Part shown: positions 2,327 through 49,956 of the stretch, in pieces
Layout: every line of letters begins with the position of its first letter
How positions within the stretch are numbered: position 1 is the first letter of the stretch
Assembly: GCF_036588685.1 (NCBI RefSeq)
Contig: NC_086381.1
Coordinates: 41,106,001-41,170,000 of the forward strand
From: Mytilus trossulus
Taxonomy: Eukaryota
Direction of reading: 5' to 3'
DNA length: 64,000 nucleotides
Translations under genes and position numbers: made by a program
Notes under the pieces: generated by a model
Seen by the model: only the letters and a program-made list of their open reading frames with translations
Told to the model about the DNA's origin: nothing
Database searches by the model: none

Positions 2327-5300
2327 ATGTTTAAAGTCAAATATAACTACAAAGCCTCCATAGATACAGCCATTAACCTTTCTGTCGGAGATAAGATATC
2401 GAATGTTGAAGATCTTGGTAATGGTTGGTCAATGGGACATAATGTGTCAAGTGGAAAAACAGGAACATTTCCAACTAGTTATATTGCCAAAAACTTGACC
2501 TTCAAAGACAAGGTCAAAAGAATGTCAAGGGTAAGGAAGACCACTGACCAACTAGAGATAATGTATAAAGCCATATCTGCATACCAAGCTGACACAGATA
2601 CAGATATCAACCTTTGCGTTGGAGATACCATATCAAACGTTGAAGATGTCGGTAATGGTTGGTCAATGGGACATAATAAGTCAAGTGGGAAAACAGGAAC
2701 ATTTCCAACTAGTTATATTGCCAAAAACTTGACATTAAAAGACAAGGTCAAAAGAATGTCAATGGCGAAGAAGGCGACTGAAACACTAGAAATTAAGTTG
2801 AAAAACAAGAGTGAAGATACAGAGACTTTGGTTCCTCGGATCAAGGCCAAAATTCCTGATCATGTCTTACAAAGAAGACTTACTCGTGTTCCTGAACATT
2901 CTAATATTGTACAGAACAAAATTTCTAAAATTGTTCCAAAGCCAGTCAAATCCTTTGTCAACAGCAGCCGTGGAGATCACAGGATCGTGAAAGGCATCTT
3001 TGGGATATTTGGAGGTTTTATTGCCTGTGGAATCCTGTTTGTTCTCTTGAGATACAGTAATGAGTATTCTCTACAAATATCTTGCTACATAACAATAGGA
3101 TTTTCCCTCCCTATATGTGCAGCATTAGCCATTTCTACACACATGAGATGTATCTTTTTACTAATGGTTCCCAACCTGTTCACTGGAAAAGGACGAGCTG
3201 TATTCATGTCCATTATATTTGCCATGTTACTTGCTGGTCCCGTAGTAAACATTGTATACAATGCAGAGCAAGCATCGCAATCTATGGCCTGCACCCAGGA
3301 ACTGATCTATAACCAGACTTCCATCCTCAGAGGTCAACTAGAAGAACCAATTAGATTAATAGAAAGGAGAATTTATGAAGGCCTTGTCAAAATGAGGAAC
3401 ATTGCACATTCCATCAAAAATGCTATTGCACCAGTTACTAATGCAGTAAAAGTTTTTGCCGATGGTCTCAACACAGCTAAAAATGCACTAAAAAATGCAG
3501 CTAAGGTATTAGTTTTATTTACTTTGCATCATCTTTGCAGGTTAAAAAAAACCAACAGAATTTGTCTTTGCTTTAATTAACTCAATTTATTTTTTGTAAT
3601 TGATAAACACATTGCATTTTCATAGATATTTTAGTCTAGTGTTTTTTACATTCACAAAAGCAACAGAAAATTTGTATTTCTTTCAGCTCTTGAATTTGAG
3701 ATTCAATGTCACCTATAACACAAAACAAGCCAGAAAACTATAGTATTTCATGAAATAAATAATGGTTCCTTCAGTCTTAATTATATAAAACACAGGCAAA
3801 CTAAGTTTAAATAAATTGTTACCATATTTCTTCTAACTGTTTATATCATTTATCAGAGGATAATTCATTGGAAACATTTTCCTGTATTTAATTCCCCTCC
3901 CGTTTAACTGTATTTCTGTGCTTTCTATCTTTCCTTCCAATTAAATACATTTCCAAAGTTTCTAATTTTCCATCCCTGTTAATTGCATTTCTTAGCTTTC
4001 TATTTCTTCCTCTCCATTACAAGTATTTCAAAGCTTTTGATTTTTTTCCCTTCCTTAGTAGAATAGTTCCCTAGCTTCCTTTTTTTCTCTCCCCCACTCT
4101 ATTACCAGTAAAAGTTCTTTGTCTCCTCATTACCAGTAAAAGTTCTATTTCTGCTCTTTACCAGAAAAGTTCTTTTTCTGCTCTTTACCAGTAAAAGTTC
4201 TTTTTCTGCTCTTTACCAGTAAAAGTTCTATTTCTCCTCATTAACAGTAAAAGTTCTTTTTCTGCTCATTACCAGTGAAAGTTCTTTTTCTGCTCATTAC
4301 CAGTGCAAGTTCTTTTTCTGCTCTTTATCAGTAAAAGTTTTTTTATTGCTCTTTACCAGTAAAAGTTCTTTTTCTGCTCATTACCAGTGAAAGTTCTTTT
4401 TCTGCTCTTTACCAGTGAAAGTTCTTTTTCTGCTCTTTACCAGTGAAAGTTCTTTTTCTGCTCTTTACCAGTAAAAGTTCTTTTTCTGCTCTTTACCAGT
4501 AAAAGTTCTTTTTCTGCTCTTTACCAGTAAAAGTTCTTTTTCGGCTCATTACCAGTGAAAGTTCTTTTTCTGCTCTTTACCATTAAAAGTTCTTTTTCTG
4601 CTCTTTACCAGTAAAAGTTCTTTTTCTGCTCATTACCAGTGAAAGTTCTTTTTCTGCTCTTTACCAGTAAAAGTTCTTTTTCTGCTCTTTACCAGTAAAA
4701 GTTCTTTTTCTGCTCATTACCAGTGAAAGTTCTTTTTCTGCTCATTACCAGTGAAAGTTCTTTTTCTGCTCTTTACCAGTAAAAGTTCTTTTTCTGCTCT
4801 TTACCAGTGAAAGTTCTATTTCTGTTCTTTACCAGTAAAAGTTCTTTTTCTGCTCTTTACCAGTGAAAGTTCTTTTTCTGCTCTTTACCAGTGAAAGTTC
4901 TATTTCTGCTCTTTACCAGTAAAAGTTCTTTTTCTGTTCTTTACCAGTAAAAGTTCTTTTTCTGCTCATTACCAGTAAAAGTTCTATTTCTCCTCATTAC
5001 CAGTAAAAGTTCTTTTTCTGCTCTTTACCAGTGAAAGTTCTTTTTCTGCTCTTTACCAGTAAAAGTTCTTTTTCTGCTCTTTACCAGAAAAGTTCTTTTT
5101 CTGCTCATTACCAGTGAAAGTTCTATTTCTGTTCTTTACCAGTGAAAGTTCTTTTTCTGCTCTTTACCAGTGAAAGTTCTATTTCTGCTCTTTACCAGTG
5201 AAAGTTCTTTTTCTGCTCATTACCAGTGAAAGTTCTATTTCTGTTCTTTACCAGTAAAAGTTCTTTTTCTGCTCTTTACCAGTAAAAGTTCCTTTTCTGC

Positions 5301-7881
5301 TCATAACCAGTAAAAGTTCTTTTTCTGCTCTTTACCAGTAAAAGTTCTTTTTTCTCCTCATTTATCAAATTTGCAACCTATTTATTTTTTCCACTATCAC
5401 ATGTATTCAATGATTTCTTTTTTATTCTCCCATTTTCATATATTTCTACTTTGTTATTGCCTTCATGTTAAATGATTTTTTCTCTTTATAATGATTTTAA
5501 TACTTTGCATTTTCCCTAGGAATGTAGTAGAGGAGTGGAAAAAGCCCAGTTTGAATGTGAGAGGGGAATAAACTATGCTAAAAATAAGTGTGAAGAAGAC
5601 CTGAGAAGGGCAGACCCTTCAAATAAAGTCATCAAATTTGGTAAAGACGTAGCCAGAACTGGGGAAGACGTAGTGAGGAAAATAGAAAGAACTGGGGATA
5701 ACATTGTGAGGTCGCTAGGAAGGATTTTTGGGAAAAAAAGGAAAAGAAGGAGGGCTATGACAGAGGAAGAGAAAAATGCAATAGAGTTAGCTAAACAGCT
5801 GATGGAACAAGAAACACCATTACAAAGATATGGTGATTACCTTAACTCTAACAATGATGAAACAATAACCAATAACACCAGACTGCATAACCAACATGCA
5901 CTGAAAAGGTAGGTTAGAGAATAAACATACAGAGCATGCACTGAAATGGTAGGGATAGATTATACAAATAAATGTACCTTGATCTATAACGTTTTTCTAT
6001 TATAAATTGGTACTTCGATTTGTCTCATTGGAACTCATGCCACATCTTCATATATCTATAATTAACATGCACTGAAATGATAGGTTAGATAAAAAAAAAA
6101 ATCATCAACATGTGGTAAAATGGTAGGAGAATAAACATAAACCCCATGCATGCACTGAAATGGTAAGTTAGAGACAAACATAAGCAGCATGCTCTGAAAA
6201 AGTAAGTTCAAGAGAACAAACATAAACACCATGCACTTAGAGTTTCAATTCAGACAGAATAAACACATATAGGTATGAAGAAAAAAACACTAGTAAACGT
6301 CATGCAACATTTATTCTTTACCCTGAATGAATTTTTTTTCCAATACCCACCAACAAAAGTTGTTTTGATTTAGGGCATTTAAAGGACCAATTTATTAACT
6401 CTGCCACATTGTTTGTACAGAGTTAAGACATTTGCCTGTTGCCTTTATTATATAATTTTACCCCCTCTTTGTTTGGTTTAAGTGTTTTTTAAAGTATGCA
6501 TCAAAGAGCAAAACACAACAAAATGTAAAAAAATAAGAACTTTACTGTACAGTAAATTACAGTACTTCTTTGATTAATGATGGATATTTGTTTCCTTTGT
6601 AGGTCAAGGAGAGGTTTTTTGCATCATTTATGTATTGTTCTAGACATTGGGGCAGTTTGTAAAGTTGTCCAAGTAGGAACGTATGTTGCCTGTACACCTC
6701 TAAAATTCATAGCGCATATCATAGAAGTAGCTAATAATGAGATAAATTCCTTCTTAGATGGGATCACCTCCTTCTTCTCATTCGATTTTGAAGGAGGTTT
6801 TGATGCCGATGGGAAAATCAATTCCTCAAAAACAGCAGCACAAATCATTTCCCAAGTTAAAGCAGACATACAGTCTAGAACTAAATGGATTCTAACAGTA
6901 TCTGGTATAGTCAGTAACGTTCTTGTCATCACTCTATTGTTATTATTTCTTAAGTCAATCTTCTATCTTAAGAAGTTTCTCAGTAAGGATCGTTATGACA
7001 ATATCTACATTTCAAAGGCTTTTAAGACTTACGACCAGCAATGCAAGGCACAGGGAAAACCATCAGTTTTACCGCTGAAGAGAAAAGAATGCAGAAACTA
7101 CGCTGACACTCGGTCACCATGGCTATCATCAAAAGAAATAGATCATGCTAAAACTGGTATTACTAAAATTGGAATTCATATCTTGATAGCTACTGTTATA
7201 ATTTTCTTTGACTATGTTCTTTACTTTGTTTTAAAGCTTATTGATCGCTTTGGTAACCTGAATATAAATATCGGTGGCAACAGTTCCCTGAGTGTATCTG
7301 TAGAGGGCAGTGGATTTATTTCAGCATTTCTGAGAGCGTTCCTAGGCACTGTTGAATTAGATTCTGACTTTGGTGTTGAGTTTAACCTAACAACTTGTAT
7401 CCCAACTCCCAGTAAACCAGATGATGATAATATTTACAAGTTTAGTTTCCTTTACTTCTTTGCATTTGTGTTCCTTATAATGCAGGCTTATGGTTTACGT
7501 TTACGAAGGAAAATTGTCACATTCTTCTATCCAGAGCGAGATATTGAGAGGATAAAATATCTTCATGAGAAAATACGACACCAGAGAAAATCTCTGATGA
7601 ATTGGTTGACCCAGCATGTAATATCTAGAAACAAGCAATTCCATACGGAAAATCGTATATCTTTCCGCGGATGGATGGAATACCGATGTCCAATATTTGC
7701 TAATTGCTTTTGCCCTTGTCTTACATATAAGACATGCATTAGCTGTGAAAATAAGGATGGCGGTAAAATTCGCTTCCATCAATGTGATAAATGTCAATCT
7801 AATTACTGTGAGGAATGTTTTGGAGATATGAATTACATTTGTCTTGTTTGTAAAACTGAAACAAACATATCTAAACCTTAG
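2327..7881 (+). CDS. Gene A1: tandem-SH3 + DC-STAMP domain multi-pass membrane protein with C-terminal RING-like Cys8 domain (DCST1/DCST2/Sneaky-like); join(2327..3505,5520..5908,6603..7881), 948 aa
   Basis: Canonical GT-AG junctions keep frame (AAG|gtatta...ccctag|GAA, phase 0; AG|gtaggt...ttgtag|G, phase 2). Two SH3 motifs (GD.I.NV...GW..G....GKTGTFPTSYI). DC-STAMP-family motifs RC..LL.VP.LF.GKGR, GP..NI..N, S..C..EL, DRYDNIYI, LPL, LRRKI..FFYPERD.ERI. C-terminal CxxC...CxxC....CxxC.......CxxC. Confidence 0.9.
4100..5362 (+). repeat. 28-bp minisatellite (~45 copies) in A1 intron
   Basis: Unit ctttaccagt[a/g]aaagttctttttctgct. Confidence 0.95.
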
Positions 7882-15536: not shown

Positions 15537-18500
15537 ATGACACATGTGGAAAAAAAAGCAGGAAAATCAAATCTTCGATTTAAAGAGACAAAGGCTGAAG
15601 ACCCACCCTCATACAACGATGCCCTTAGATTTCCTGACAAACTATTCAAAAGTGACCGCCATACATTTACCTGCCTAAAGGCTATATTTGGTATCTTCTG
15701 TGGATTTTTTACTGGTGGATTACTGTTTGTTCTGCTAATCTACAGTTTTGGTTTTGCCTTGGATATAGCTGGGTATATATCTATTGGAGTGACAGCCCTA
15801 GCGTGTCTAGGTCTAGCACTATCTGTCCATGTTCGCTGTATCGTGGTATTGATGATTCCTAGTCTATTTACTGGAAGAGGAAGGGTAGCCATTTTGGCAG
15901 TTATATTTGGACTCCTATTATCAGGACCAATCAAAAACATCTCTATAAATACTTCAGAAGTATCAAGAAGTATGGCCTGTAGTACTGAACTCTTTCAGAA
16001 TCAGTCGCACACTCTCAGACAGCAGTTAAATGTACCACTAGAGCAAATTACAAATGCTCTGGACAAACACGCCAAAGATATAAAGGAAATTGGAAAACAA
16101 ATAGATAGAGCAATAAAACCAATTTATGATGCTCTTGTTGCTGTTAAAAATGGTATCGAGAAAGTGAGCAATGCACTGGATACAGCTTCACAGGTAAAAA
16201 AGTAGTCAATGGTGCACTTGATTTAGGTTCACAGGTAAACTAGTAGTCAGTGGTGCACCTGATATAGGTTCACCGGTAAAATAGTAGTCAATGGTGCACT
16301 TGATATAGGTTCACAGGTAAAATAGTAGTCAGTGGTGCACTTGATAAAGGTTCACCGGTAAAATAGTAGTCAGTGGTGCACTTGATATAGGTTCACAGGT
16401 AAAATAGTAGTCAGTGGTGCACTTGATAAAGCTTCACAAGTAAACTAGTAGTCAGTGGTGCACTTGATATAGGTTCACAGGTAAAATTATAAGTCAGTGG
16501 TGCACTTGATATAGCTTCACAGGTGAACTAGTAGTCAGTGGTGCACTTGATATAGGTTCACGGGTAAAATAGTAGTCAGTGCTGCACTTGATATAGGTTC
16601 ACAGGTAAAATAGTAGTCAGTGCTGCACTGGTTATAGGTTCACAGGTAAAATAGTAGTCTGTGGTGCACTTGATTCAGCTTCACAGGTCAAATAATTAGT
16701 CAGTGGTGTACTTGATACAGCTTCACAGGTAAACTAGTAGTCAGTGGTGCACTAGATACAGCTTCACAGGTCAAATAATTACCATAGTCAGTGGTGTACT
16801 TGATACAGCTTCACAGGTGAAATAGCAATTCAATGCGCTGAATTTATTCAGATTCACAGGGAAAATAGTTGGATATATTCACTTGTACACAACACCTGAA
16901 TGTATATGAATGTATACAGAGGCTGATGAGTATGAGAAAATATTTATGTTCTTAAATGATGGAACATATGTTGAATGTAACTAAATATGTTAGCATGTTC
17001 AGCTGTGATTTATAAATGTTAATTCTGATGAGAAAAAGTATCATTTAAAGGTAATATATGCATACCAATAATTGTGGATAATTCAGAAATGATTGTTTAA
17101 TATCTACAAGATTGGGAATAATTATTTCCCATATTCACGATACCTGTTCTTATAATAATTGTAAATACCAATTTACCAATCTGGCATGAGTAATGGATAG
17201 AAATAAAATAATATTTTTGGGTCAGTAAAGATATCATATAATATTTTTTCCAATCGGAAAAATAATTATTACATAAGATTTTTTTTCCATTTTTTACATT
17301 TTAATGAGTGATATGTCAAAATGATATACCAGTCATAAGATGAAATTTCTACCATAATGTTTATTCAAAAGATAATTTATTATGTAATGACATATCCTAT
17401 TGGGCTTTGTTTTATGTGATAAAAATTCTGAGGCATTGGTCCTTTTATTATGCTGATGGAATAAATATCCCATAACAATAATTCCAATTGGAACTTTTGT
17501 AACATAATAAATCTTTGGAATAAATATAATGACGGAACTTATATTCTGTGACATACCTTTAGTGAGAGATTTCTTATGTTTATAATTTATATATTTACAG
17601 GAGTGTGACAGAATGATGAACAAAGTGTATGATGACTGTAGAAGAGAACTCAACAAGGCTTACAGTAAATGTAGGGAGACACTTAGAAAGGCTTTAAGGT
17701 ATAAATATCATCAATCGTCCATTATGTCTGACATCAGAATCATTTGATTATTAGTTTAAACAAACAAAAGATAAAAACCGTGATTCAGCTGCTGCTTGAA
17801 ATATTGGCAAATTAACCTAGGCAGAAAAGTTAACACTGAAAATTGGTAATTATTGTAATTGACCATTGTGTAGAGGAGATTTTTTTTTTTGGCGGGGGGA
17901 TGGGCAGGGCCTCAAAATAGTTGTCAAACTTATAAGTTCTGATGGTAATGCAACTTTAAAGAAAATCTTATCCTACCCATTGTTCTATCACAAGTGGTTT
18001 CTATCAAACTAAATGAAGCAAAAATTTAAAATTGCTTTAATTTCACAGTAATTAGTATACTCTTTTTCAGATATGTTCCAGGATTAGATCAGTCTCTAGT
18101 ATACTATTTTTCAGATATGTTCCAGGATAAGATCAGTATCTAGTATACTATTTTTCAGATATGTTCCAGGATTAGATCAGTATCTAGTATACTCTTTTTC
18201 AGATATGTTCCAGGATTAGATCAGTAACTAGTATATTCTTTTACAGATATGTTCCAGAATTAGATCAGTAACTAGTATACTCTTTTACAGATATGTTCCA
18301 GAATTAGATCAGTTTCTAGTATACTCTTCATTAGATATGTTCAAGGATTAGATCAGTAACTAGTATACTCTTTTACAGATATGTTCCCGAATTAGATCAG
18401 TAATTAGTATTATCTTTTACAGATATGTTCCAGGATTAGATCAGTAACTTGTATACTCTTTTACATATATGTTCCAGGATAAGATCAGTAACTATTATAC

Positions 18501-21500
18501 TCTTTTACAGATATGTTCCAGTATGAGATCAGTAACTAGTATACTCTTTTACAGATATAATCCAGGATTAGATCAGTAACTACTATACTCTTTTACAGAT
18601 ATGTTCCAGAATTAGATCAGTAACTAGTCTACTCTTTTACAGATATGTTCCAGGATTAGATCAGTAACTAGAATACTCTTTTACAGATATGATCCAGGAT
18701 TAGATCAGTAACTAGTTTACTCTTTTACATTTATGTTCCAGGATTAGATCAGTAACTTGTATGCTCTTTTACAGATATGTTCCAGGATTAGATCAGTAAC
18801 TAGTATACTCTTTATTAGATATGTTCCAGAATTAGATCAGTAACTAGTATACTCTTTAACAGATATGTTCCAGTATTAGACCAGTAACTAGTATACTCTT
18901 CTACATATATGTTCCAGGATTAGATCAGTAACTAGTATACGCTTTATCAGATCTGTTCCAGAATTAGATCAGAAACTTGTATACTCTTTTACAGATATGT
19001 TACAGGATTAGATCAATAACTAGTATACTCTTTAACAGATATGTTCCAGGATTAGATCAGTAACTAGTATACTCTTTTACAGATATGTTCCAGAATTAGA
19101 TCAGTAACTAGTATACTCTTTTACAGATATGTTCCAGGATTCTATCAGTAACTAGTATACTCTTTATTAGATATGTTCCAGAATTATATCAGTAACTAGT
19201 ATACTCTTTAACAGATGTGTTCCAGGATTAGATCAGTAAATATTAGACATTTTTACATAAATGTTCCAGGATAAGATTGGTAACTAGTATACTCTTTATC
19301 AGATATGTTCCAGAATTAGATCAGAAACTTGTATACTCTTTTACAGATATGTTCCAGGATTAGATAAGTAACTAGATATAGTATACTCTTTTACAGATAT
19401 GTTCCAGGATTAGATAAGTAACTAGATATAGTATACTCTTTTACAGATATGTTCCAGGATTAGATCAGTAACTAGTATACTCTTTAACAGATATGTTCCA
19501 GGATTAGATCAGTAACTAGTATACTCTTTATCAGATATGTTCCATAATTAGATAAGAAACTTGTATACTCTTTTACAGATATGTTCCAGGATTAGATCAG
19601 TAACTAGAATACTCTTTTACAGAAATTGTCCAGGATTAGATCAGTAACTAGTATACATGTACTCTTTTACAGATATGTTCCAGGATTAGATCAGTAACTA
19701 GTATACTCTTTTACAGATATGTTCCAGGATTAGATCAGTAACTAGTATAGTCTTTTACAGATATGTTCCAGGATTCTATCAGTAACTAGAATACTCTTTA
19801 TTACATACATGTGAACTTCCCGACGGGAGTACAAAACTCCCGTTTTCAGGGGTCTCCTCCCGTCCTCCCGTTTAGGAGAAAAAACTCCCGTGTATGAAAT
19901 ATTTCATGAATGAAAATTTTCAGACGCCATATTTGATCATTTCTTACTACTGTTCAGGTGTAATTGACACCTGTGTTAAATTTTACCTGTACATCAAAGA
20001 AGATGTATAATTATATGGCCTCACTTGACAGCTTGGGTGTCATACATACTGGTAATCAACGATGTTTACCTCTGGCTAACTGCCGTTGTGTTAAAAAAAA
20101 AACGATGTGTATTGGGAATATTGAAATACATTTTTGTTACTTCCCTTTGTTTTATCCTGTTTTCAGTTATTTTGCTTTTAAAAATGTAAATTGTAAAAAG
20201 ACTATAAATGATTAATATTTTCATCAAATAATCATAAAAGGATGTTGATTAAATGAATTTAAATGTTTTGGGACAAATAAAAAAATATAAATTTATAAAT
20301 TAATTTTGCAATTTAGACCTCCTTTCAAGAATGAAATTGGAGTTTATATATTAAATCTGTTTAAAATGTCTTATATTTACATTGAGCTAGAAATAGCAGA
20401 ACAATATACACAGATTAAGTCTTTTTTAAGTTTTCTTCAAATATGACTTTAATAATGCTGAAAAGCCATGCAGTACCACTGTTAGTAGTGTTTGTTATTT
20501 TTATAAATCATTTATGATATTGCAAATATACATTAAGAGCTTATTTCTTTCTTATTTGTCTATACATTTACCAATGATAAGGAGATGGAGACATGAATAA
20601 AAATCTATACAGATAAGATGAATAAATCCAATGATTAATTTGCAAGCAGTGAACAATCATTTATCAAAAACAAAACAAAACAAGAAACAGATTCTTCTTA
20701 ATATTTTAATTTATTCAAATAGAAAGGCAATAAGGGTACATGTACTATAAACATATAACAATTTGATGGATATTTGAAGATAAAACACAATTTCTACATC
20801 ATATGGTTACATTTACGACAAAATTTATGTCGATAAAAAACCTCCTGATCTGAGTCCTAATCTCCTGACCAAAATTTCCAAATCTCCTGATCTGAGTTTC
20901 ACAGTCCATCACATGTATGTTATTATATATGTTCCAGAATTAGATCAATAACTAGTATACTCTTTAACAGATATGTTCCAGGATTAGATCAGTAACTATT
21001 AGACATTTTTACATAAATGTTCCATGATAAGATCATTAACTAGTATACTCTTTATCAGATATGTTCCAGAATTAGATCAGAATCTTGTATACTCTTTTAC
21101 AGATATGTTCCAGGATTAGATCAGTAACTAGTACTCTTTTACAGATATGTTCCAAGATTAGATCAGTAACTAGATATAGTATACTCTTTTACAGATATGT
21201 TCCAGGATTAGATCTGTAACTAGTATATTCTTTTACAGATATGTTCCAGGATTAGATCAGTAACTAGTATACTCTTTTACATATATGTTCCAGGATTGAA
21301 ACAGTAACTAGTATACTCTTTTTCAGGTGGGTTCCAGGTTTAGATATCACAGCAGTCTGTAATATCCTTAATATACAAAAGGTCTGTTTTATACTCAAAC
21401 CATCTTTTGTATGTTCACCAGTCAAAGCAATTGATAAGGCAGCTGAGAAACTTGCGGATTTTGCTGTCAAACTGGTCAAAGATATCGATAAATGGTTTCA

Positions 21501-22575
21501 ATTCAACGTTATCAAGAAGTCTGAGAGTGGCCAGGTGTATAATGCTACCAAAACAGCTAAAGAATTCATTGCTGAGATTGAGAAAGCTCTGACCGACAAG
21601 AAAATAACATTTACTTACATCGTGGAAATTATGAGCAAACTTTTAGCACTTTCCCTACTGTTGCTCCTAACCCAATCATTTTTTTATTTGAAAAATTATC
21701 TGGCCAAGGATGAATTTGATAACATTTACATTACTTCACAGTTTAAGGGTTATGATTCTGAAACACGAGAGAAAGGACAACAGGGCGTGTTACCTCTTCA
21801 AAAGAAGGAAAAGAAACTATACACAGATAGTACATCCTTCATGATGTCTCCAAAAGAAAGAAGTCAGAGTTTGATGGGCATATCTCAGCTCCTCCTACAC
21901 GTATTACTGAGTGCTCTCATTGTGTTCCTTAATTACGTACTGTTCTATATATTGTTCCTTGTGAACAGGTATGGCCAGGTGAATGTAGATGTCACTGGAA
22001 AAAGTAAAATAAACCTAAAGGTCAAAGGAGGACAAATGGCTGCCTTCATAAACAGTTTTATAAATGACATTAACATTGAAAACACATACGAGGCTAGTTA
22101 TAATACATCCGCATGCCTGCCAAGTCCTACGCCTCCTGATGCTACGGACATTCCAGTTCTTTGTTCAGCTTATGCAGCTGCTCTACTCCTGGTTTTACTG
22201 CAAGCTTATGGAGCAAGATACAATCGTAAAATATGTGCCTTCTACTATCCTGAACAGGAAATGGAACGTATCACTTTTCTGCAGAAGAAAATCCTTTACA
22301 ACCGCAAGGGAAGGCACACATTCATTAAACAACATGTTACTTCAATGAAGAATCAAAAAGTTGCTGAGCAGAGAATGTCTGTGAAACAACTGTTATCTGC
22401 AATATGTCCCTGCTTTGAAGTGGAAAAAACAGATCTAAAATTCTGTATGTACTGTGGAGCTAACCAAGGGTCCAGTCATACATTACAGGAATGTAAAAAC
22501 ACAAACTGCAAATCAACTTATTGTTCTGAATGTTTTAATGATTGTGGACATAGTTGTCCTATCTGTAGAAAATAA
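15537..22575 (+). CDS. Gene B1: DC-STAMP domain protein with N-terminal PPxY motif and C-terminal RING-like domain; join(15537..16193,17601..17698,21327..22575), 667 aa
   Basis: Frame-preserving junctions CAG|gtaaaa...ttacag|GAG and AG|gtataa...tttcag|G. The 98-nt middle exon (ECDRMMNKVYDDCRRELNKAYSKC) is missed by the ORF track. Motifs GRGR, GPIKNI, SMACSTEL, DEFDNIYI, FYYPEQEMERI, terminal Cys8. Intron phases (0,2) match type A genes. Confidence 0.9.
16165..16868 (+). repeat. 41-bp minisatellite (~17 copies) derived from the B1 exon/intron donor junction
   Basis: Unit gtagtcagtggtgcacttgatataggttcacaggtaaaata. The first unit overlaps the exon end (atgcactggatacagcttcacag|gtaaaa). Confidence 0.95.
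18045..21345 (+). repeat. 44-bp minisatellite (~48 copies) derived from the B1 acceptor junction, interrupted by a 1.1-kb TIR element
   Basis: Unit agtatactcttttacagatatgttccaggattagatcagtaact. The last unit is the real acceptor (tactctttttcag|gtgggttccaggtttagat). Confidence 0.95.
19804..20919. mobile_element. Non-autonomous DNA transposon (1.1 kb) inserted into the 44-bp array
   Basis: TIRs catacatgtga / tcacatgtatg; flanking ttatta duplication; subterminal ctcccg/ctcctga repeats. Confidence 0.8.
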
Positions 22576-28606: not shown

Positions 28607-31600
28607 ATGTATAAAGTCATATTTACATACCCGGCCTCCACGGATACAGACATAAACCTTTGTGTGGGAGATACTGTATCAAACGTTGAAGATGTTGGTA
28701 ACGGCTGGTCAATGGGACATAATAGGTCCACTGGTAAAACTGGCACATTTCCAACTAATTTCATTGTTAGGAAATTGTCATTCAAAGACAAGGTCAAAAG
28801 AATGTCAATGGCAAAAAAGATGACTGACGAATTAGTCCTCATGTCCAAAAACAAGAGTGAAAGTACAGAAACTTTGGTTCCACGAAACAAGGCCAAAATT
28901 CCTGATGATATCTTACAAAAAAGACTTTCTCATGTTCCTGGACATTCAAATATCATAGGTGTCAGACTTCCTAAACTGGTTCCAAAGCCAGTCAAATCCT
29001 TTGGAAAGAACTTTGTCAACAGCAGCCGTGGAGATCACAGGATCGTAAAAGGTATCTTTGGGATATTTGGAGGTTTTATTGCCTGTGGAATCCTGTTTGT
29101 TCTCTTGAGATACAGTTATGAGTATTCTCTACAAATCTCTTGCTACATAACACTAGGATTTTCCCTCCCTATATGTGCAGCATTAGCCGTGTCTACACAC
29201 ATGAGATGTATCTTTTTACTAATGGTTCCCAACTTGTTCACTGGAAAGGGACGGACTGTATTCATGTCCATTATATTCGCCCTGTTACTTGCTGGTCCTG
29301 TAGTAAACATTGTCTACAATGCAGAGCAAGCATCGCAATCAATGGCCTGCACCCAGGAACTGATCTATAACCAGACTTCCATTCTTAGAGGTCAACTAGA
29401 AGAACCAATCAGATTAATAGAGAGGAGAATTTATGAAGGCCTTGTCAAACTGAGGAACATTGCAAATTCTATCAAAAATACTATAGCACCAGTTACTGAT
29501 GCAGTAAAGGCTTTTGCTAATGGTCTCAATGCAGCTAAAAATGCACTAGAAAATGCAGCAAAGGTAACTTTTATTTACTTTAGTGAACCTCATTGATTGG
29601 AGGATCTTTGCATTTTAAGAAAAAGAGAAATGGAATAGTATTTGTCTATTTTTTATTCACAAAAAGCTTGTTAGGAAGTAGAACTGATAAACTTTTAAAC
29701 ATATATATAAATATAAGCATTGTGTATAAGATTTATAGCATTTGTTAGCTGAACTTTGGTCAGAGAATGGAAATGAAAAATAAATCAGCATTTTTTCCAT
29801 TTGTACAGAAGCATGACTGAATTTATCTTGGCTATGATAGGGGAATACAAATCATAACTTTAAGATACCAAAATATCAGCAAATGTATATAAAAAAACAT
29901 ATCATTATCATTTTTAAGATAACATCTAAGTTCTATCATATGATGACATACACTTCTTTTTTTTCCCCCCTTTCAAAACTTTCACTTTACAATTTATTTC
30001 CTAGGAATGTAGTAATGGTATTAATACTGCCCAGTCTAAATGTGAGACAGGAATAAACAATGCTAAATCTGAGTGTGAAAAAGCTCTCAAATCTGTTGAC
30101 CCTACAAAGGATATTATCAACTTTGGGAAAGATGTAGCCAATACTGGGGAATCAATAGGAAATGGTTTGCGTAGATTGTTTGGGAAAAAAAGGAAAAGAA
30201 GGAGAGCTATTACAAAGGAAGAGAAAAATGCAATAGAGTTAGCTAAACAGTTGATTGGGCAAGAATCACCCTTACAAAGATATGATATCTATCTAAAATC
30301 TAAGAATACTGAGATGATAACCAATAACACCCGACTGCATAAACAGCATTCACTGAAAAGGTAGGTTAGTCTTGAGAATAAACATAAACCACAATCCCTT
30401 ATAAAGTAGATTAGATAATAAACATGAACAACATACACTGAAATGTTAAGTTAGAATTACACAAGATTGCAACTAAAATGATACAAACAATGAAAAAATG
30501 GCTTCAAAGTTTGCTAAACAAAATAAAAATGTCTCATAATATAAGTTGAATAACAGTATTTCAGTTTAATAATGATGAACATTTAATTTTCCTTGTAGGT
30601 CAAAAAGAGGTGTTTTGCATAAGATATGTGTGGTTCTTGACATTGATGATGTTTGTAAAGTTGTCCAAGTAGCCAATGTACTTGTCTGTAAGCCTATAAA
30701 ATTCATATCCACTGTCATAGAAGGTGCAAATACTGCAGTTAATTCTGTCCTTAATGAAATCATCTCCTTCTTTTATTTTGACTTTGATGGAGATATTAGT
30801 GCAAATGGGAATATCAATTCCTCAAAAACAGCAGCACAAATCATATCCCAAGTTAAAGATGACATACAGTCTAGAACTAAATGGATTCTAACAGTATCTG
30901 GTATAGTCAGTAACATTCTCGTCATCACTCTATTGTTATTATTTCTAAAGTCAATCTTCTATCTTAAGAAGTTTCTCAGTAAGGATCGCTATGACAATAT
31001 CTACATTTCAAAGGCTTTTAAGACTTACGACCAGCAATGCAAGGCACAGGGAAAACCATCAGTTTTACCGCTGAAGAGAAAAGAATGCAGAAACTACGCT
31101 GACACTCGGTCACCATGGCTATCATCGAAAGAAATAGATCATGCTAAAACTGGTATTACTAAAATTGGAATTCATCTCTTGATAGCAACTGTAATCATTT
31201 TCTTTGACTATGTTCTTTATTTTGTTCTGATGCTTATTGATCGCTATGGTAATCTGAATATAAAAATCGGTGGCAACAGTTACCTGAATGTATCAGTAGA
31301 GGGCAGTGGATTTATTTCAGCATTTTTAAGAGCTTTCCTAAGCACTATCGAATTGGATTCAGACTTTGGAGTAGAGTTTAACCTAACAACTTGTATCCCA
31401 ACTCCCAGTAAACCAGATGACAATAATATCTACAAGTTTAGTTTTCTTTATTTCTTTGCATTTGTGTTCCTTATAATGCAGGCTTATGGTTTACGTTTAC
31501 GAAGGAAAATTGTCACATTCTTCTATCCAGAGCGAGATATTGAGAGGATAAAATATCTTTATGAGAAAATACGACACCAGAGAAAATCTCTGTTGAATTG

Positions 31601-31880
31601 GTTGACCCAGCATGTCATATCTCGGAACAAGCAATTCCATATGGAAAATCGTATAACTTTCCGTGGATGGATGGAATACCGATGTCCCATATTTGCTAAA
31701 TATTTCTGCCCTTGTCTACCTAAATATAACAGATGTATCAGCTGTGAAAATAAGGAAGATGGGAGAATTCGCTTCCATCAATGTGATAAATGTCAATCTA
31801 ATTACTGTGAGGAATGTTTTGGAGATATGAAATACATTTGTCTCATTTGTAATGCTAAATCAAACATGTCAAAAAGGTGA
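28607..31880 (+). CDS. Gene A2: single-SH3 + DC-STAMP domain protein, paralog of A1; join(28607..29563,30005..30360,30599..31880), 864 aa
   Basis: Same exon structure and phases as A1 (AAG|gtaact...tcctag|GAA; AG|gtaggt...ttgtag|G). High similarity to A1 throughout; one SH3 unit only. Confidence 0.9.
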
Positions 31881-36149: not shown

Positions 36150-39100
36150 TGTTAACTACTGTGTTTTCTATTATTTTGTTTATATTATTTTCAGGTACAT
36201 GTTACTTGGTGGGTTTAGTTTATAGTTTAGTAAAGACATTAGAATAGACAATAGAATTATATTGAAGCCATAAATAGCCAATCAACAGTGGTAGCAGAGC
36301 TTATAAAGATGGCAACAGCACCTAGTTACAAGAACCCACCAGGTTTGACCAAAGATAAAAGTTATCAACAATGGAAAAATGAAGTTAAAATGTGGCAACT
36401 CGTGACCGATCTTGACAAGAAGAAGAGAGGTTTGGCTTTAGCTTTGTCGCTACAAGGAAAACCAAGGGAAGTAGCCCTAGAAGTAGATCCCACTGATTTA
36501 AATGTTGATGAAGGAGTAGATAAGCTGATAACTGAGTTGGACAAGCTTTTTGAGAAGGATAAAATAGATCAGGCTTATGCTGCATATACTGTATTTGATA
36601 AGTTCCACAGAATAGATGATTTAAGCATGTCTGATTATATCATTGAGTTTGAGCAGAGATACAATAAATGTAAGAAATATGAAATGGTACTCCCAGATGC
36701 AATTTTAGCTTTTAAACTTCTTGACAATGCTGGGTTAAGTCAAAGTAATCGTCAGCTGGCATTAACTGCATGTTCTGACCTTAAATTCGACACAATGAAA
36801 TCTGCTTTGAATAGGATATTTGCATCAAAATCTCAAAATTTTCCTGGAGAACAAGACTCTGTTGTAACTGTTAAAGAAGAATCAGCTTTTGTCAGTGATG
36901 GGTATTATCAGAGAGGTCGAAGTTCAAGAAGAAATTTTCCTCGTAATCGAGCTGATAGATCAACCAACTCTAGTAGACTTAAGACAAAAATGAATCCAGT
37001 CTTTAATGGAAATGTCTCAAGATGTAAAATATGTGATTCCAAATTTCATTGGGTCAAGGATTGTCCTCACAAGCAGCTCGATGTGAATTTAACAGAACAT
37101 GAGAGTGATGAGTTAAATGAAATTGTAAATATAACATTATTAACCTCTGCACAAGAATTTAAGCCTCTAACAGTGTTTGTCGCAGAAGCCTACAATGCTG
37201 CAGTTATTGATACTGCATGTTCCAAGACAGTGTGTGGTTCTAAATGGTTATATGAATTTGTAGAATCACTTGATCCAGGACTTGATCAACTTACTTGTAA
37301 TGAAAGTCATGTACCATTCAAATTTGGTGATGGACAAACAGTATATTCATATCAGAAAGTGAAAATTCCAGCACTAATTGGGTCAGTTAAGTGCTCAATT
37401 GAAACAGAAGTGGTGGATTGTGAAATACCGTTATTGTTAAGTAAAACCTCTCTGAAAAGAGCAAGCACTATCCTAGATCTCAGAAATGACAAGGTTACCA
37501 TGTTTGGACAGTTAGTGGATGTAAACCTAACTTCAAGTGGTCATTACTGTATCAACATTAAAGACAAGCAATGCACGAACAGAAATAAGAATGAGAGTGA
37601 GGAGGTTTTGATCATTGACACAAAATTACCTTTTAAGAAGAAAAAGGAGATTCTTTTAAAGTTGCATAAGCAGTTTGGACATGCATCATCAGATAAACTT
37701 TTATCCCTGTTACAAAGTGCTGGTTCTGTTGATTCTGAAACAAAGACCATTCTTAAAGATATCTGCACAAAGTGTTTAATTTGCCATAAGTTCAAGCATC
37801 CAAAAGCTAAACCAGTGGTTGCCTTTTCACATGCAAATGATTTCAATCAAATTGTGGCAATGGACCTTCATGAAATTGACCATAACTTTTATTATCTACA
37901 TGTTATTGACTTATTCAGCAGATTGAGTGCAGCTGCAATCATCAGAAGAAAGGACTCTAAAGTCATTGTAGATAAGTTCATGCAGATATGGGTGGGCGTT
38001 TATGGAGCACCTGAAGTTGGTGTTTACACAGATAATGGAGGTGAATTTAATTCACAGATATTTAGAGACATGGCAGAAAACTTAAACATGTCAGTTAAAA
38101 CAACAGCAGGATATAGTCCTTGGTCCAATGGTGTAGTAGAAAGACAAAACGCAACGCTTACAGAAACAATCAATAAAATGAGAGAAAGCTCTAACCTTTC
38201 ATGGGAGACTTCCGTCAGTTGGGCAGTCCATGCTAAGAACAGTTTGTTGAATGTCTATGGCTACAGTCCATATCAAATAGTTTTTGGAAGGAACCCAAAC
38301 ATGCCAACGTCTATAGTTAACAAGCCTCCTGCATTAGAAGGTACAACAATTAGTAATATTATGGGAAAGCATTTAGTTGGCTTACATGAAGCTAGAAAAG
38401 CATTTATTGCCGCAGAATCCTCTGAGAAAGTAAGAAGGGCACTACGTAAGCAAATCCGGCCTTCAGGAGAAAAATTCAAAAATGGTGACAAAGTTTTCTT
38501 CCTCCGAGACAATCAGTGGAAAGGACCAGGCTGGGTAATTGGTCAAGATAACGTAGTTGTTTTTGTAAGATATGGAGGTACATATGTCCGTGTACATGAA
38601 AGTAGATTAAAAAGAGACATTGATGTTGAAGGAAAACAAAAGATTATTCATAAGCATACAGCAAAGTCAACTCCTGTGCGTAAGCCTCAAGCTGCAACAT
38701 ATAACAACACTGAACCAGATCATGACTTAGTATACTATGAGAGTGACGATGAAGAGCCTCATCAAAATGATACTGAGAATGATGAAAATCAAGAAAATGT
38801 TGAAGAATCTGCAGACGAAAGTGCTGATCAAGATGATAGTCATGCTGGTAGCTTGAATGGTAGTTTGAATGGTGAAGATGGTCATGAATCTGAAGGGAGA
38901 GACAGTTTTGATTTGGAAAATCCGGCAGATAATGATATACATGAGGAAAGTATGGAACATAATCCTGAGTCCCAGGAAAATGATTGTATGAAATTAAAGA
39001 AGGATCAGATAGTGAATTTTAAAATCCCTGGTGAAAATGACACAAGAGAAGCAATAATTTTAGGCAGGGCAGGAAAAGCTACAACTGTTAAAAAGAGCTG

Positions 39101-40976
39101 GTACAATATAGAATACAATCAGCCAGAAAATATGAGAGGTGATCAGATATCAATTGATCTAAGAACAGTCAATGATTTGAAAGTTGTTAACCAGTCAGAT
39201 GAAATGAATGAAGATGTATTTTTAAGCGATATTGATTTTACTGAGGCTAGAGAGGCAGAACTGGATAACTGGAGAAAGCACAATGTTTTTGAAGAAGTTG
39301 AAGACAATGGTCAAAACTGTATTTCAACAAGATGGGTTTACACTATGAAAGAATTAGAGAACGAATTTCATAGAAAAGCTAGATTGGTAGCAAAAGGTTT
39401 TGAAGAAGACAGTCTAGATGAAATACCAAAGAATTCACCAACATGTGAAAAGCAGTCTCTACGACTAATTTTATCAATTATTGCTAGTAAAAGATGGTCA
39501 ATTAATTCTGTGGACATTAAAACTGCTTTTCTTCAAGGAGAGAAAATGCAAAGAGAAGTCTACTTGAGACCTCCTAAAGAAGTTAAAGCAACTGGTAAAG
39601 TCTGGCGCCTTAACAAATGTGTATATGGTCTTGTTGATGCATCCTTAAAGTGGTATGAAAAAGTTAAAGCAACATTGCTAGATTGTGGAGGAACAGTGTC
39701 CAAAATTGATTCAGCAGTTTTTTATTGGTATAATGAAAAAGGTTTGACTGGTGTCCTAGCAGTTCATGTAGATGACTTTCTTTGGGCAGGATCCAGTACC
39801 TTTGAGAAAAGTGTTGTGTCCAGAATTAGGGATATGTTCAAGGTAGGGAAAGAATCCTGTGAGTCTTTCAAATATTTAGGTCTTGACCTCAGCCAAGAAA
39901 ATGAAACTATTGTTCTCAGCCAGCAAGACTATGTCAGAATGTTGAAGACTGTTTCAATAGATAAAGACAGAGTTAAAACATCTCCTCTTTCATCATCAGA
40001 ACAGACACTATTGAGGTCAAAAATAGGACAATTATTATGGTTAGCAAGACAAACACGTCCAGACATTGCGTTTGATGTTGCTGCTATTTCATCAAAAATT
40101 AAGTCTAGCACTATTGAAGATCTAAAGAAAGTCAATAAAATAATTAGGAAGGTGCAAAACGATCCCGTTTCACTGCAATTCCAGAATCTTGGACATGATG
40201 TGAAATTTATGTTGTTCAGTGATGCATCATTTGGAAATCTTCCAGATGGTGGAAGTCAGGGTGGTTATGTTGTGTTTTTGATGGGCGATGATGGTAAAGT
40301 GAAACCCTATCACTTGGCAGTCTAAGAAATTAAGAAGGGTTGTACGTAGTACTTTGGCAAGTGAAGCCTTGGCCTTAGCTGATGGTGTGGACTGTGTTAT
40401 ATCTTTAGCAGCTCTGTTTAAGGAATTAATGCACAATGAGAACGATTTGATGCATACTCCAGTAGATTGTTTCGTTGACAACAAAGACCTTTATCATGCA
40501 ATATACTCTGATAAACCTGTTGGAGAAAAGAGATTGAGGGTGGAGATCAATGCAATAAAGCAATTACTTCAAGGTGGAGAGCTTAAAGAAGTTAAATGGA
40601 TTCAGACAAATGAACAAATCGCCAATGTTCTTACAAAGCATGGTGCTTCTGGACAAGACATCTTACGTTGTTTTGAAAAAGGACTTTTGAATTCAAGCCT
40701 TTTGTAATTAGTGCAACTGACAATAAAAAAAAGGAGAAAAGATCAGATAAATACTTGATACTATGACATTTTAATTGCCTTCATTTTTATTTTTATTTGG
40801 ACATTAACATTTCTAGTGAAAAGAGAAAAGGATTAGATTGTTAACTACTGTGTTTTCTATTATTTTGTTTATATTATTTTCAGGTACATGTTACTTGGTG
40901 GGTTTAGTTTATAGTTTAGTAAAGACATTAGAATAGACAATAGAATTATATTGAAGCCATAAATAGCCAATCAACA
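36150..40976 (+). mobile_element. Full-length Ty1/copia LTR retrotransposon, GalEa-clade-like
   Basis: Identical 138-bp LTRs (36150..36287, 40839..40976; TGTT...AACA). 5-bp TSD CGGAC. PBS TGGTAGCAGAGC (complementary to the initiator Met tRNA 3' end). PPT gaaaagagaaaagga before the 3' LTR. Domain order Gag-PR-IN-RT-RH. Confidence 0.95.
36309..40707 (+). CDS. Gag-Pol polyprotein of the copia element, with one +1 frameshift at ~40302-40304 in RNase H
   Basis: Zn knuckle CKICDSKFHWVKDC; protease AVIDTAC; integrase HKQFGH..C..C, MDL, TDNGGEF, VER; RT KARLVAKGF, VDIKTAFLQG, HVDD; RNase H SDAS. Removing one A from gtgaaaccct restores NPITWQSKKLRRVVRSTLASEALAL and joins ORF 40354..40707. Confidence 0.9.
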
Positions 40977-48076: not shown

Positions 48077-49902
48077 ATGACACATGCAGACAAAACACCA
48101 GGGAGTTCAAAACTTGAATCCATCAAGAGAAAGTCTGATGACCCACCCTCATACAATGATGCCATGAGATTTCCTGACAATTACCACAATACATTTCCTG
48201 ACAAACTATTTAAAAGTGAACGCCATACATTTACCTGCCTGAAGGCTATATTTGGTATCTTTTCTGGAATATTGACTGGTGGAATACTGTTTGTTCTGCT
48301 AATCTACAGTTTTGGTTTTGCCTTGGATATAGCTGGATATATATCTATTGGAGTGACAGCCTTAGCATGTCTAGGTCTAGCACTATCTGTCCATGTCCGC
48401 TGTATCGTGGTACTGATGATTCCTAGTCTATTTACTGGTAGAGGAAGGGTAGCCATCTTGGCAGTTATATTGGGACTCCTGTTATCAAGACCAATCAAAA
48501 ACATCTCTATAAATACTTCAGAAGTATCCAGAAGTATGGCCTGTAGTACCGAACTCTTTCAGAATCAGTCACACTCTCTCAGACAACAGCTCCAGGTACC
48601 AATAGAGCAGATTAAAGTAGCCTTGGGTAAACAGGCAGAGGATATAAAGATGTTAGGAACAGCAATAGATAAAGCCATAGAACCAATTTATAATGCTCTT
48701 GTTGCTGTTAAAAAAGGTGTCAAGTTAGTGAGTGGTGCATTGGATACTGCTTCACAGGTAAAATATTAAGCCAGTGTTGCAGTGTATTCAGATTCACAAG
48801 TAAAATTTAAGAACCTTAGTGAGCAGGCTCATATACCCCACATCCCCACATTGTCATTGGAGAAATTAAATAAGTGTAAGGAAAAAAATTGTATAAGAAA
48901 AAATATTGAATAATAATTTCCTGTCAATATCCACATCTACATGCATAGTATGTCCTTATTATTTACAAAATTTCATGAAATTCTGTTGTGTGGTTTCAGA
49001 GTAGTTGAGATGACAAACTGATGCAGAAGTACATTGAAGCAAATAAGTTCAAAGGGGTGTAACTCCTAGAAAAAAAAATGAATCAAAATTTGTTGTCGAA
49101 ATGCACATCTACGTAGTATGTCCTTTATATACAAAGTTTCATGAAATTCTGTTGTGTGGTTTGAGAGGAGTTGAGGTGACAAACTGTGGAAGTAGTACCT
49201 TAAAGCAAATAAGTTCAAACAGGTGTAACTCCTAGAAAAAAAATTGAATCATAATTTCCTGTTGGTATGCACATCTACATAGTATGTCCTTATTATCTGA
49301 AAAGGTTTCGTGAAATTCTGTTGTGTGGTTTGAGAGGAGTTGCGATGACAATCTGTTGCAGTAGTTCATTAAAGTAAATAAGTTCAAAGGGGCGTTACTC
49401 CTAGAAAAAAAATTGAATCATAATTTCCCGTCGATATGCACAACTACATAGTATGTCCTTGTTATCTGAAAAGGTCTCGTGAAAATCTGTTGTGTGGTTT
49501 GAGAGGAGTTGCGATGACAAACTGTTGCAGTAGTACACTAAAGTAAATAAGTTCAAAGGGGCATAACTCCTAGAAAAAAAATTGAATCGCAATTTCCCTT
49601 CAACATGCACAACTACATAGTATGTCCTTATTAAATGAAAAGGTTTCGTGAAATTCTGTTGTGTGGTTTGAGAGGAGTTGCGATGACAAACTGTTGCAGT
49701 AGTACGTTAAAGTAAATAAGTTCAAAGGGAAAAAAATTGAATTGCAATTTCCCGTCGATATGCACAACTACATAGTATGTCAATATTATCTGAAAAGGTT
49801 TCGTGAAATTCTGTTGAGTGGTTTGAGAGGAGTTGCGATGACAAGAAACAGGACTGACGGACGGACGGACTGACGGACGGACGGACGGACGGACTGACGG
49901 AT

Positions 49903-49956
<54 letters not shown>

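Follow-up and report, generated by a model that had tools for sequence, protein, structure and literature searches.

The window analysed here is a 64-kb stretch of DNA with four tandem DC-STAMP-family genes, all on the + strand and in the order A1, B1, A2, B2, and it raises the question of why the type A proteins carry two furin-type sites around an insert at the tip of a predicted stalk, and what removal of that insert would do. The spliced A1 gene comprises three exons with GT-AG ends, giving a product of 948 aa that is identical to the M. trossulus RefSeq protein XP_063397929.1 (P0007). Exon 1 (2327–3505, + strand, as for all gene features below) encodes two SH3 domains (2330–2491 and 2561–2722), the N-terminal membrane helices, the ascending stalk helix and a sequon NQT (3311–3319). 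Exon 2 (5520–5908) encodes the first three Cys of a ladder (C1–C3), an amphipathic helix, site 1 and most of the spacer, and exon 3 (6603–7881) the descending stalk, the DC_STAMP domain (PF07782) and a C-terminal RING-type Cys cluster. Paralog A2 (28607–31880; exons 28607–29563, 30005–30360 and 30599–31880; product P0016) has one SH3 domain and both sites. The B genes have closed tips, that of B1 (15537–22575; exons 15537–16193, 17601–17698 and 21327–22575; product P0169) being 19 aa long, without a furin motif and in a protein without SH3, and that of B2 (48077–52500; exons 48077–48757, 50636–50733 and 51252–52500) being closed as well. SH3 domains at the N-terminus of the DC-STAMP-family proteins in the window (2330–2722 and 28607–28780) thus number two in A1, one in A2 and none in B, and an N-terminal SH3 is common among mollusc and brachiopod members.

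Exon 2 spans 389 nt in A1 and 356 nt in A2, as against 98 nt in the B genes, and the phase-2 intron at the tip is common to A and B. The insert corresponds to an expanded exon 2, and its absence from the B proteins, reported in the initial annotation, holds in the gene models. In A1, this intron (intron 2, 5909–6602) cuts the P4 Arg codon of site 2. We examined RNA-type contigs from four runs, out of 24 listed, at a likeness of 88% (one recorded as RNA and three guessed to be RNA, from three studies); the intron-2 joint was seen in all four and the intron-1 joint in two, and some of these contigs may derive from paralogs or from sister species. A joint at 3506–5727 in one run was not GT-AG, had unknown letters between its ends and was read as paralog mapping. 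Run X4 has an in-frame 6-nt insertion at 5726, just before site 1, which matches two extra residues in A1 of M. edulis and M. galloprovincialis. The membrane-domain regions of A1 and A2 (~6900–7600 vs ~30900–31600) share 204 of 214 residues, and those of A1/A2 and of B1/B2 (~21500–22200 vs ~51450–52150) are far closer than the stalk tips. Sequence comparison suggests that an A–B pair was duplicated recently, or that gene conversion took place, and that the tip has changed rapidly.

Type A is a DC-STAMP family member and not a class I fusogen. PF07782 matched A1 at 173.9 bits (cut-off 25), a C-terminal RING-type Cys cluster spans Cys901–Cys939, and PF26037 (zf-RING_DCST1_C) is precomputed on a protein with 96% identity (P0001). 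In two quick trees computed with the tip columns removed, proteins of the DCST1 and DCST2 types stood apart from a third group (SH-aLRT 95–96), which held A, B, other mollusc proteins, a brachiopod and echinoderms, and which OC-STAMP joined on a long branch. The placement of A and B on the same side as OC-STAMP (support 95–96) thus comes from quick trees with that long branch and without a DC-STAMP row. The DCST1 clade (support 100) included P0179 and the bivalve protein P0005, with A and B outside; since a bivalve DCST1-type protein groups with mammalian DCST1, A and B are not orthologs of the sperm factors, despite their database names. The DCST2 clade was separate (support 98–99), its label taken from one Atlas look-up and our own grouping, not from source names. 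An 80-member, mostly molluscan Atlas cluster with SH3 in 69% of its members probably corresponds to the A/B clade. Several brachiopod, sea urchin, crinoid and chiton proteins named 'DCST2-like' (P0026, P0041, P0054, P0058 and P0052) also fell outside DCST1/2, on the OC-STAMP side, and from their sequences could possibly correspond, among invertebrates, to the regulators of somatic fusion.

Hydropathy, positive-inside counts, AlphaFold2 and homology to OC-STAMP fit a predicted multi-pass protein with cytosolic termini and a long outer loop. Six or seven membrane helices are predicted in A1 by AlphaFold2 and hydropathy, and basic residues are rich in 641–710 and after the last helix and scarce in 740–795. 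SH3 domains and a RING-type end imply cytosolic termini. In the AlphaFold2 models (pLDDT 72; pTM 0.57 and 0.52), a membrane bundle is followed by a long helix (residues 287–424), a low-confidence stretch (~424–527) and a return helix (540–581); the loop has low confidence in both models, is flanked by the two long helices, and includes the spacer with two short helices. Six Cys, nearly invariant in alignments, bracket the insert. Three form an ascending ladder (C395/C406/C417, C-x10-C-x10-C; 5523–5591), and three a hydrophobic, family-wide descending one that follows a six-residue stub (C533/C542/C553; 6613–6693). Judging from the register of the hairpin, they would pair as a ladder, with C553, C542 and C533 as the predicted partners of C395, C406 and C417, respectively. 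N162 of mouse OC-STAMP is reported from experiment to be glycosylated and extracellular (PMC4456411), and its motif aligns just past the Cys that matches A1 Cys322, near the sequon at N329. The OC-STAMP experiment and the model together make it very probable that the A1 loop is lumenal or extracellular, and the insert most likely sits at the membrane-distal end of a stalk outside the cell. Foldseek against the PDB gave no match at E ≤ 0.001 (the listed rows were essentially SH3 domains), the wide VIA search returned only SH3 domains and generic helical hairpins, and an Atlas search with the tip region (390–560) gave no usable match. A complex prediction for A2 (206–745) with B1 (106–558), run without alignments or controls, scored 0.05 and is uninformative on an A–B dimer.

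The gene models confirmed the paired sites first noticed in spliced A1 and A2, with the second crossing an exon junction. Site 1 of A1 (5733–5753; residues 465–471) reads KKRKRRR followed by Ala, and site 2 (residues 523–526) reads RSRR followed by Gly, spanning the intron at 5909–6602 with its last part in 6603–6612. Between them lies a 55-aa spacer (5754–5908 plus 6603–6612), the predicted excised cap, between Cys417 and Cys533 of the predicted extracellular hairpin, at the place taken by a short turn in other members of the family. Among the three sequons initially assigned to the loop, NNT (residue 511; 5871–5879) is in the spacer, whereas NQT (329) and NSS (596) are elsewhere in the ectodomain. 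The strong divergence described around the sites likewise applies to the outer flanks, where A1 and A2 share 19 of 47 residues before site 1 and 16 of 27 after site 2, but not to the spacer (38/51). Between Mytilus species, the A1 spacer is identical at 51 of 51 (M. edulis) and 50 of 51 positions (M. galloprovincialis), as against 37–38 of 47 in the segment before site 1, which is the most changed part of A1; the A2 spacer (42/51) is less conserved than its flank (33/36). Site 1 is missing from one model of M. edulis (P0012).

The paired sites recur well beyond Mytilus. We measured the loop between Cys3 and Cys4 in the 48 parsable proteins among the 150 best representatives (102 were omitted as fragments or for lacking the pattern used by the script), and found two classes, 39 short loops (8–32 aa) and nine long ones (50–104 aa). 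The motif R-X-[K/R]-R was present in all nine long loops, in none of the 39 short loops, and nowhere in the remaining 1785 ectodomain residues of the long-loop proteins. Six of the nine had two strict sites, which shuffled loops matched at rates of 0.0003–0.09. With cluster members added, 26 of the 29 full-length proteins with long loops (13 of them from Mytilus) had two strict sites, as did seven of ten lineages, with one relaxed site in each of the other three. Nine genera of bivalves and gastropods have paired sites (Mytilus, Mizuhopecten, Pecten, Argopecten, Crassostrea, Pinctada, Haliotis, Patella and Lottia), the conservation in orthologs that the initial reading of proteolytic priming called for. 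Sampling was incomplete, as a profile search yielded only seven proteins among 8000 scored candidates, three of them new. The spacers are 16–76 aa long and unalignable between lineages.

The residues around the sites point to a protease. P2' is hydrophobic at 16 of 21 sites (background 0.33), a pattern that fits the preference of furin, and P1' is S, A, G or D at 18 of 21 (loop background 0.33), although the lineages share ancestry and binomial figures would overstate their independence. Furin is reported to favour small P1' residues (PMC3281273). The paired sites are not due to chance. Two points speak against cleavage: in two lineages the gap from site 2 to Cys4 is only two residues, which may hinder access of the protease, and hydrophobic residues come before site 1, in a flank that PiTou scores for accessibility. 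The paired sites are absent from B, from a Mya-type clade and from two abalone paralogs, so the cap must be dispensable in close relatives. Long loops occur in the gastropod and bivalve branches of one mollusc clade (support 98–99), with B nested among long-loop bivalve proteins; for these sequences, one early gain and several losses is the simplest reading, and repeated gains are also possible. Scallop spacers have in common a pair of Cys and a Trp-rich motif, and a Cys pair is also found in the spacer of Patella (P0021, P0199, P0200 and P0032 for the two groups together); by their sequences, some excised peptides may be disulfide loops.

We propose that type A has a predicted extracellular helical-hairpin stalk with a spacer inserted at its tip, which a furin-like convertase would excise in the Golgi or at the cell surface. 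What remains would be a protein of two disulfide-clamped chains, its tip now uncapped and likely to engage the membrane of a neighbouring cell or a partner there. Proteolytic priming with disulfide-linked halves, put forward in the initial annotation, is now a likely prediction and much better supported, because the sites recur in orthologs, the OC-STAMP loop is extracellular and the six Cys bracket the insert. Motif, P1'/P2' pattern, predicted disorder and conservation together argue with good confidence for cleavage at site 1 and, a little less firmly, make cleavage at both sites probable. The halves would very likely stay together after the cut, since both are membrane-anchored and a three-rung Cys ladder brackets it. 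Whether the spacer acts as an inhibitory cap, as in ENaC, is evenly balanced, and we give the whole model of activation by a convertase-removed cap a predicted chance of about one half. Removal of the spacer would expose, or at least could uncover, the hydrophobic C4–C6 arm, and would turn the amphipathic helix ahead of site 1 into a free but tethered C-terminus. The SH3 domains would connect type A to the cytoskeleton or to trafficking.

Work on relatives gives context to this proposal. For DCST1/2, a stalk-like ectodomain is predicted, with a hydrophobic tip that TMEM81 keeps covered before activation and that afterwards inserts in the target membrane, according to the SPARK preprint (10.64898/2026.05.13.724128), and the A1 insert is located at the very tip which that preprint singles out. 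DC-STAMP-family proteins are described as required for fusion, and DCST1/2 as insufficient for it in HEK293T cells (bioRxiv 2021.04.18.440256). As for the role of type A, our guess by family is regulated somatic cell–cell adhesion or fusion, e.g., of hemocytes or in wound repair, and not the sperm role of DCST1/2. In mussel hemocytes, a 3.23-fold rise of a DC-STAMP-domain contig is reported following myticin C (PMC7023338); the contig may belong to any paralog and serves as a lead only.

By comparison of the sequences, the lineage-specific feature is the segment before site 1. In A1 this amphipathic segment (5628–5732) is built of ~11-residue repeats, ends in Ile-Phe-Gly and would become a free, stalk-tethered C-terminus after cleavage. 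Its amphipathic character, already remarked upon in the initial annotation, was upheld, with a hydrophobic moment of 0.66 that none of 5000 shuffles reached; the stalk helix itself has 0.4–0.5, so the segment may only pack on protein. Across lineages the segment has 10–49 residues, varying in ~11-residue steps, and its 18-mer proved amphipathic (p < 0.02) for 8 of the 12 rows and not significantly so for the other four. A large hydrophobic residue and Gly directly precede the basic run in 7 of 11 lineages. Gly ahead of two basic residues is described as the signal for amidation (PMC6313938); A1 has it, as do 7 of the 11 lineages (Gly background 0.083). The boldest reading would make type A a protease-primed mollusc fusogen on a DC-STAMP scaffold, whose amidated amphipathic C-terminal helix inserts in the opposing membrane: furin would remove the cap, a carboxypeptidase and PAM would amidate the end before site 1, and the fusion peptide would lie at a new C-terminus on a disulfide-clamped stalk, the reverse of viral class I. 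We consider this unlikely. The net charge of the segment is not conserved (–6 to +3) and the models leave it unfolded (pLDDT < 50), for which reasons its membrane insertion is a hypothesis only; the Gly may simply be the ordinary tip-turn Gly of the family, to judge from the sequences. The pearl-oyster paralog P0060 has a canonical-looking tip followed immediately by Lys-Arg.

The other readings of the insert differ in what they make of the two cuts. The initial annotation compared type A with RSV F, in which, as reported, two cuts release p27, the chains are disulfide-linked and the fusion peptide lies at the second site (PMC10320223), and suggested that the cut at site 2 exposes an N-terminal, Gly-started hydrophobic fusion peptide. 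Residues 527–545 of A1 are indeed hydrophobic (Kyte–Doolittle 1.69). However, only 2–8 residues separate site 2 from the conserved Cys4, as against the 15–40 residues given for viral fusion peptides (PMC10377500), Gly is the P1' residue in only five of the ten lineages, the other five having S, A, Q or F, and the C4–C6 arm is at least as hydrophobic in relatives that cannot be cleaved (mean 0.81 in short-loop members vs 0.68 in long-loop ones). Given the short stub and the family-wide hydrophobic arm, no free N-terminal fusion peptide would be made, and this part of the annotation is not supported. Class I viral-type fusogens are, moreover, single-pass proteins, whereas type A is predicted to be multi-pass, and we regard the RSV F reading as very improbable. 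What type A shares with RSV F are the two furin-type sites and, by prediction, an excised peptide and disulfide-linked chains; it differs in having both halves membrane-anchored and in the opposite polarity, as its candidate membrane-active element is the new C-terminus. The double cleavage of ENaC is the better analogy. In ENaC alpha and gamma (GRIP domain), cutting at paired extracellular polybasic tracts is reported to set free an inhibitory tract while both ends of the protein stay anchored (10.1101/2020.10.19.344341), and ENaC resembles type A in its paired polybasic tracts around an embedded tract, its cytosolic termini and, in that account, pairs that evolve together. ENaC is, in contrast, an ion channel of an unrelated family, and its cleavage and inhibition have been shown, whereas those of type A are predicted.

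Cleavage without any insertion of the tip in a membrane, serving maturation, trafficking, turnover or a protein-binding surface, would fit all the cleavage evidence equally well. It would also fit the variable charge and amphipathicity before site 1 and the ~11-residue repeat, which matches the spacing of the stalk Cys as a coiled-coil extension would. One site would suffice for such a purpose, yet two are kept in the seven strict lineages and in relaxed form in the other three, and the insert sits at the end that the SPARK preprint proposes to contact membranes; we find this reading somewhat doubtful. That the spacer, once cut out, works as a signalling or defence peptide in its own right is improbable. 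The near-identity of the A1 spacer among Mytilus species, set against its changing flank, and the Cys pairs and Trp-rich motif of scallop and Patella spacers would suit such a peptide, but the spacers of different lineages are alike in neither sequence nor length, the A2 spacer changes more than its flank, and an inhibitory cap would be equally constrained within a lineage. Alternatively, the basic runs could remain uncut and bind polyanions (heparan sulfate or acidic lipids) on an extended, flexible tip. Site 1, with up to seven basic residues, is longer than furin requires, as such binding might explain; binding of charge would not, however, select the small P1' and hydrophobic P2' residues and the fixed distance of site 2 from Cys4, which together are the signature of a protease, and we rate this alternative as quite improbable.

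Type A combines features of two sets of relatives. It resembles DC-STAMP and OC-STAMP, the regulators of osteoclast and giant-cell fusion, in PF07782 and, by prediction, in the multi-pass layout with the long loop outside, and differs from them in its N-terminal SH3, six-Cys stalk and dual-site insert. The three-Cys C-x10-C-x10-C stalk, the hydrophobic descending arm and the C-terminal RING-type Cys cluster are shared with the sperm factors DCST1/DCST2 (the SPARK core), SPE-42/SPE-49 and Sneaky. Unlike type A, whose tip carries the insert, DCST1/2-type proteins have short closed turns without furin motifs, and A and B are outside both of their clades. The shield proposed for DCST1/2 in the SPARK preprint is a separate protein, TMEM81, whereas that of type A would be a built-in spacer.

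How DC-STAMP, OC-STAMP and DCST1/2 promote fusion is an open question, for which molluscs provide an apparent protease-removable element at the stalk tip beside natural paralogs, the B proteins, that do without it. Comparison of A with B, together with simple site mutants, would offer an on/off switch to test the tip model. The A/B branch is also an invertebrate branch outside DCST1/2, against the claim in a 2021 preprint (bioRxiv 2021.04.18.440256) that invertebrates have solely DCST1/2. A literature search, mostly judged from listings, gave no report of furin-type cleavage in the DC-STAMP family, and the word furin is absent from the main text of the SPARK preprint; supplementary trees or figures of the SPARK or DCST1/2 papers may already include the A/B clade. 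Type A is a new and probably protease-primed variant of a known family, and if cleavage were only a matter of maturation, its value would drop to that of an unreported processing step.

The introns of these genes contain tandem repeats whose units copy splice junctions of the very same genes. One unit, of 44 bp, copies the B1 exon-3 acceptor and is present in ~49 copies (18046–19799 and 20927–21345), and ~16 copies of a 41-bp unit repeat the B1 exon-1 donor (16172–16825). Four degenerate copies of the A1 exon-2 donor lie at 5935–6237; the donor copies in A1 were not used as alternative splice sites in the four runs checked. Most of A1 intron 1 is filled by a 28-bp minisatellite (4097–5352, ~45 copies). 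Between A2 and B2, an LTR-retrotransposon-like polyprotein (36255–40707, in two frames with a break near 40310) with integrase (rve) and RVT_2 domains, which from its domain order we take to be Copia-type, is embedded in a 61-bp satellite array.
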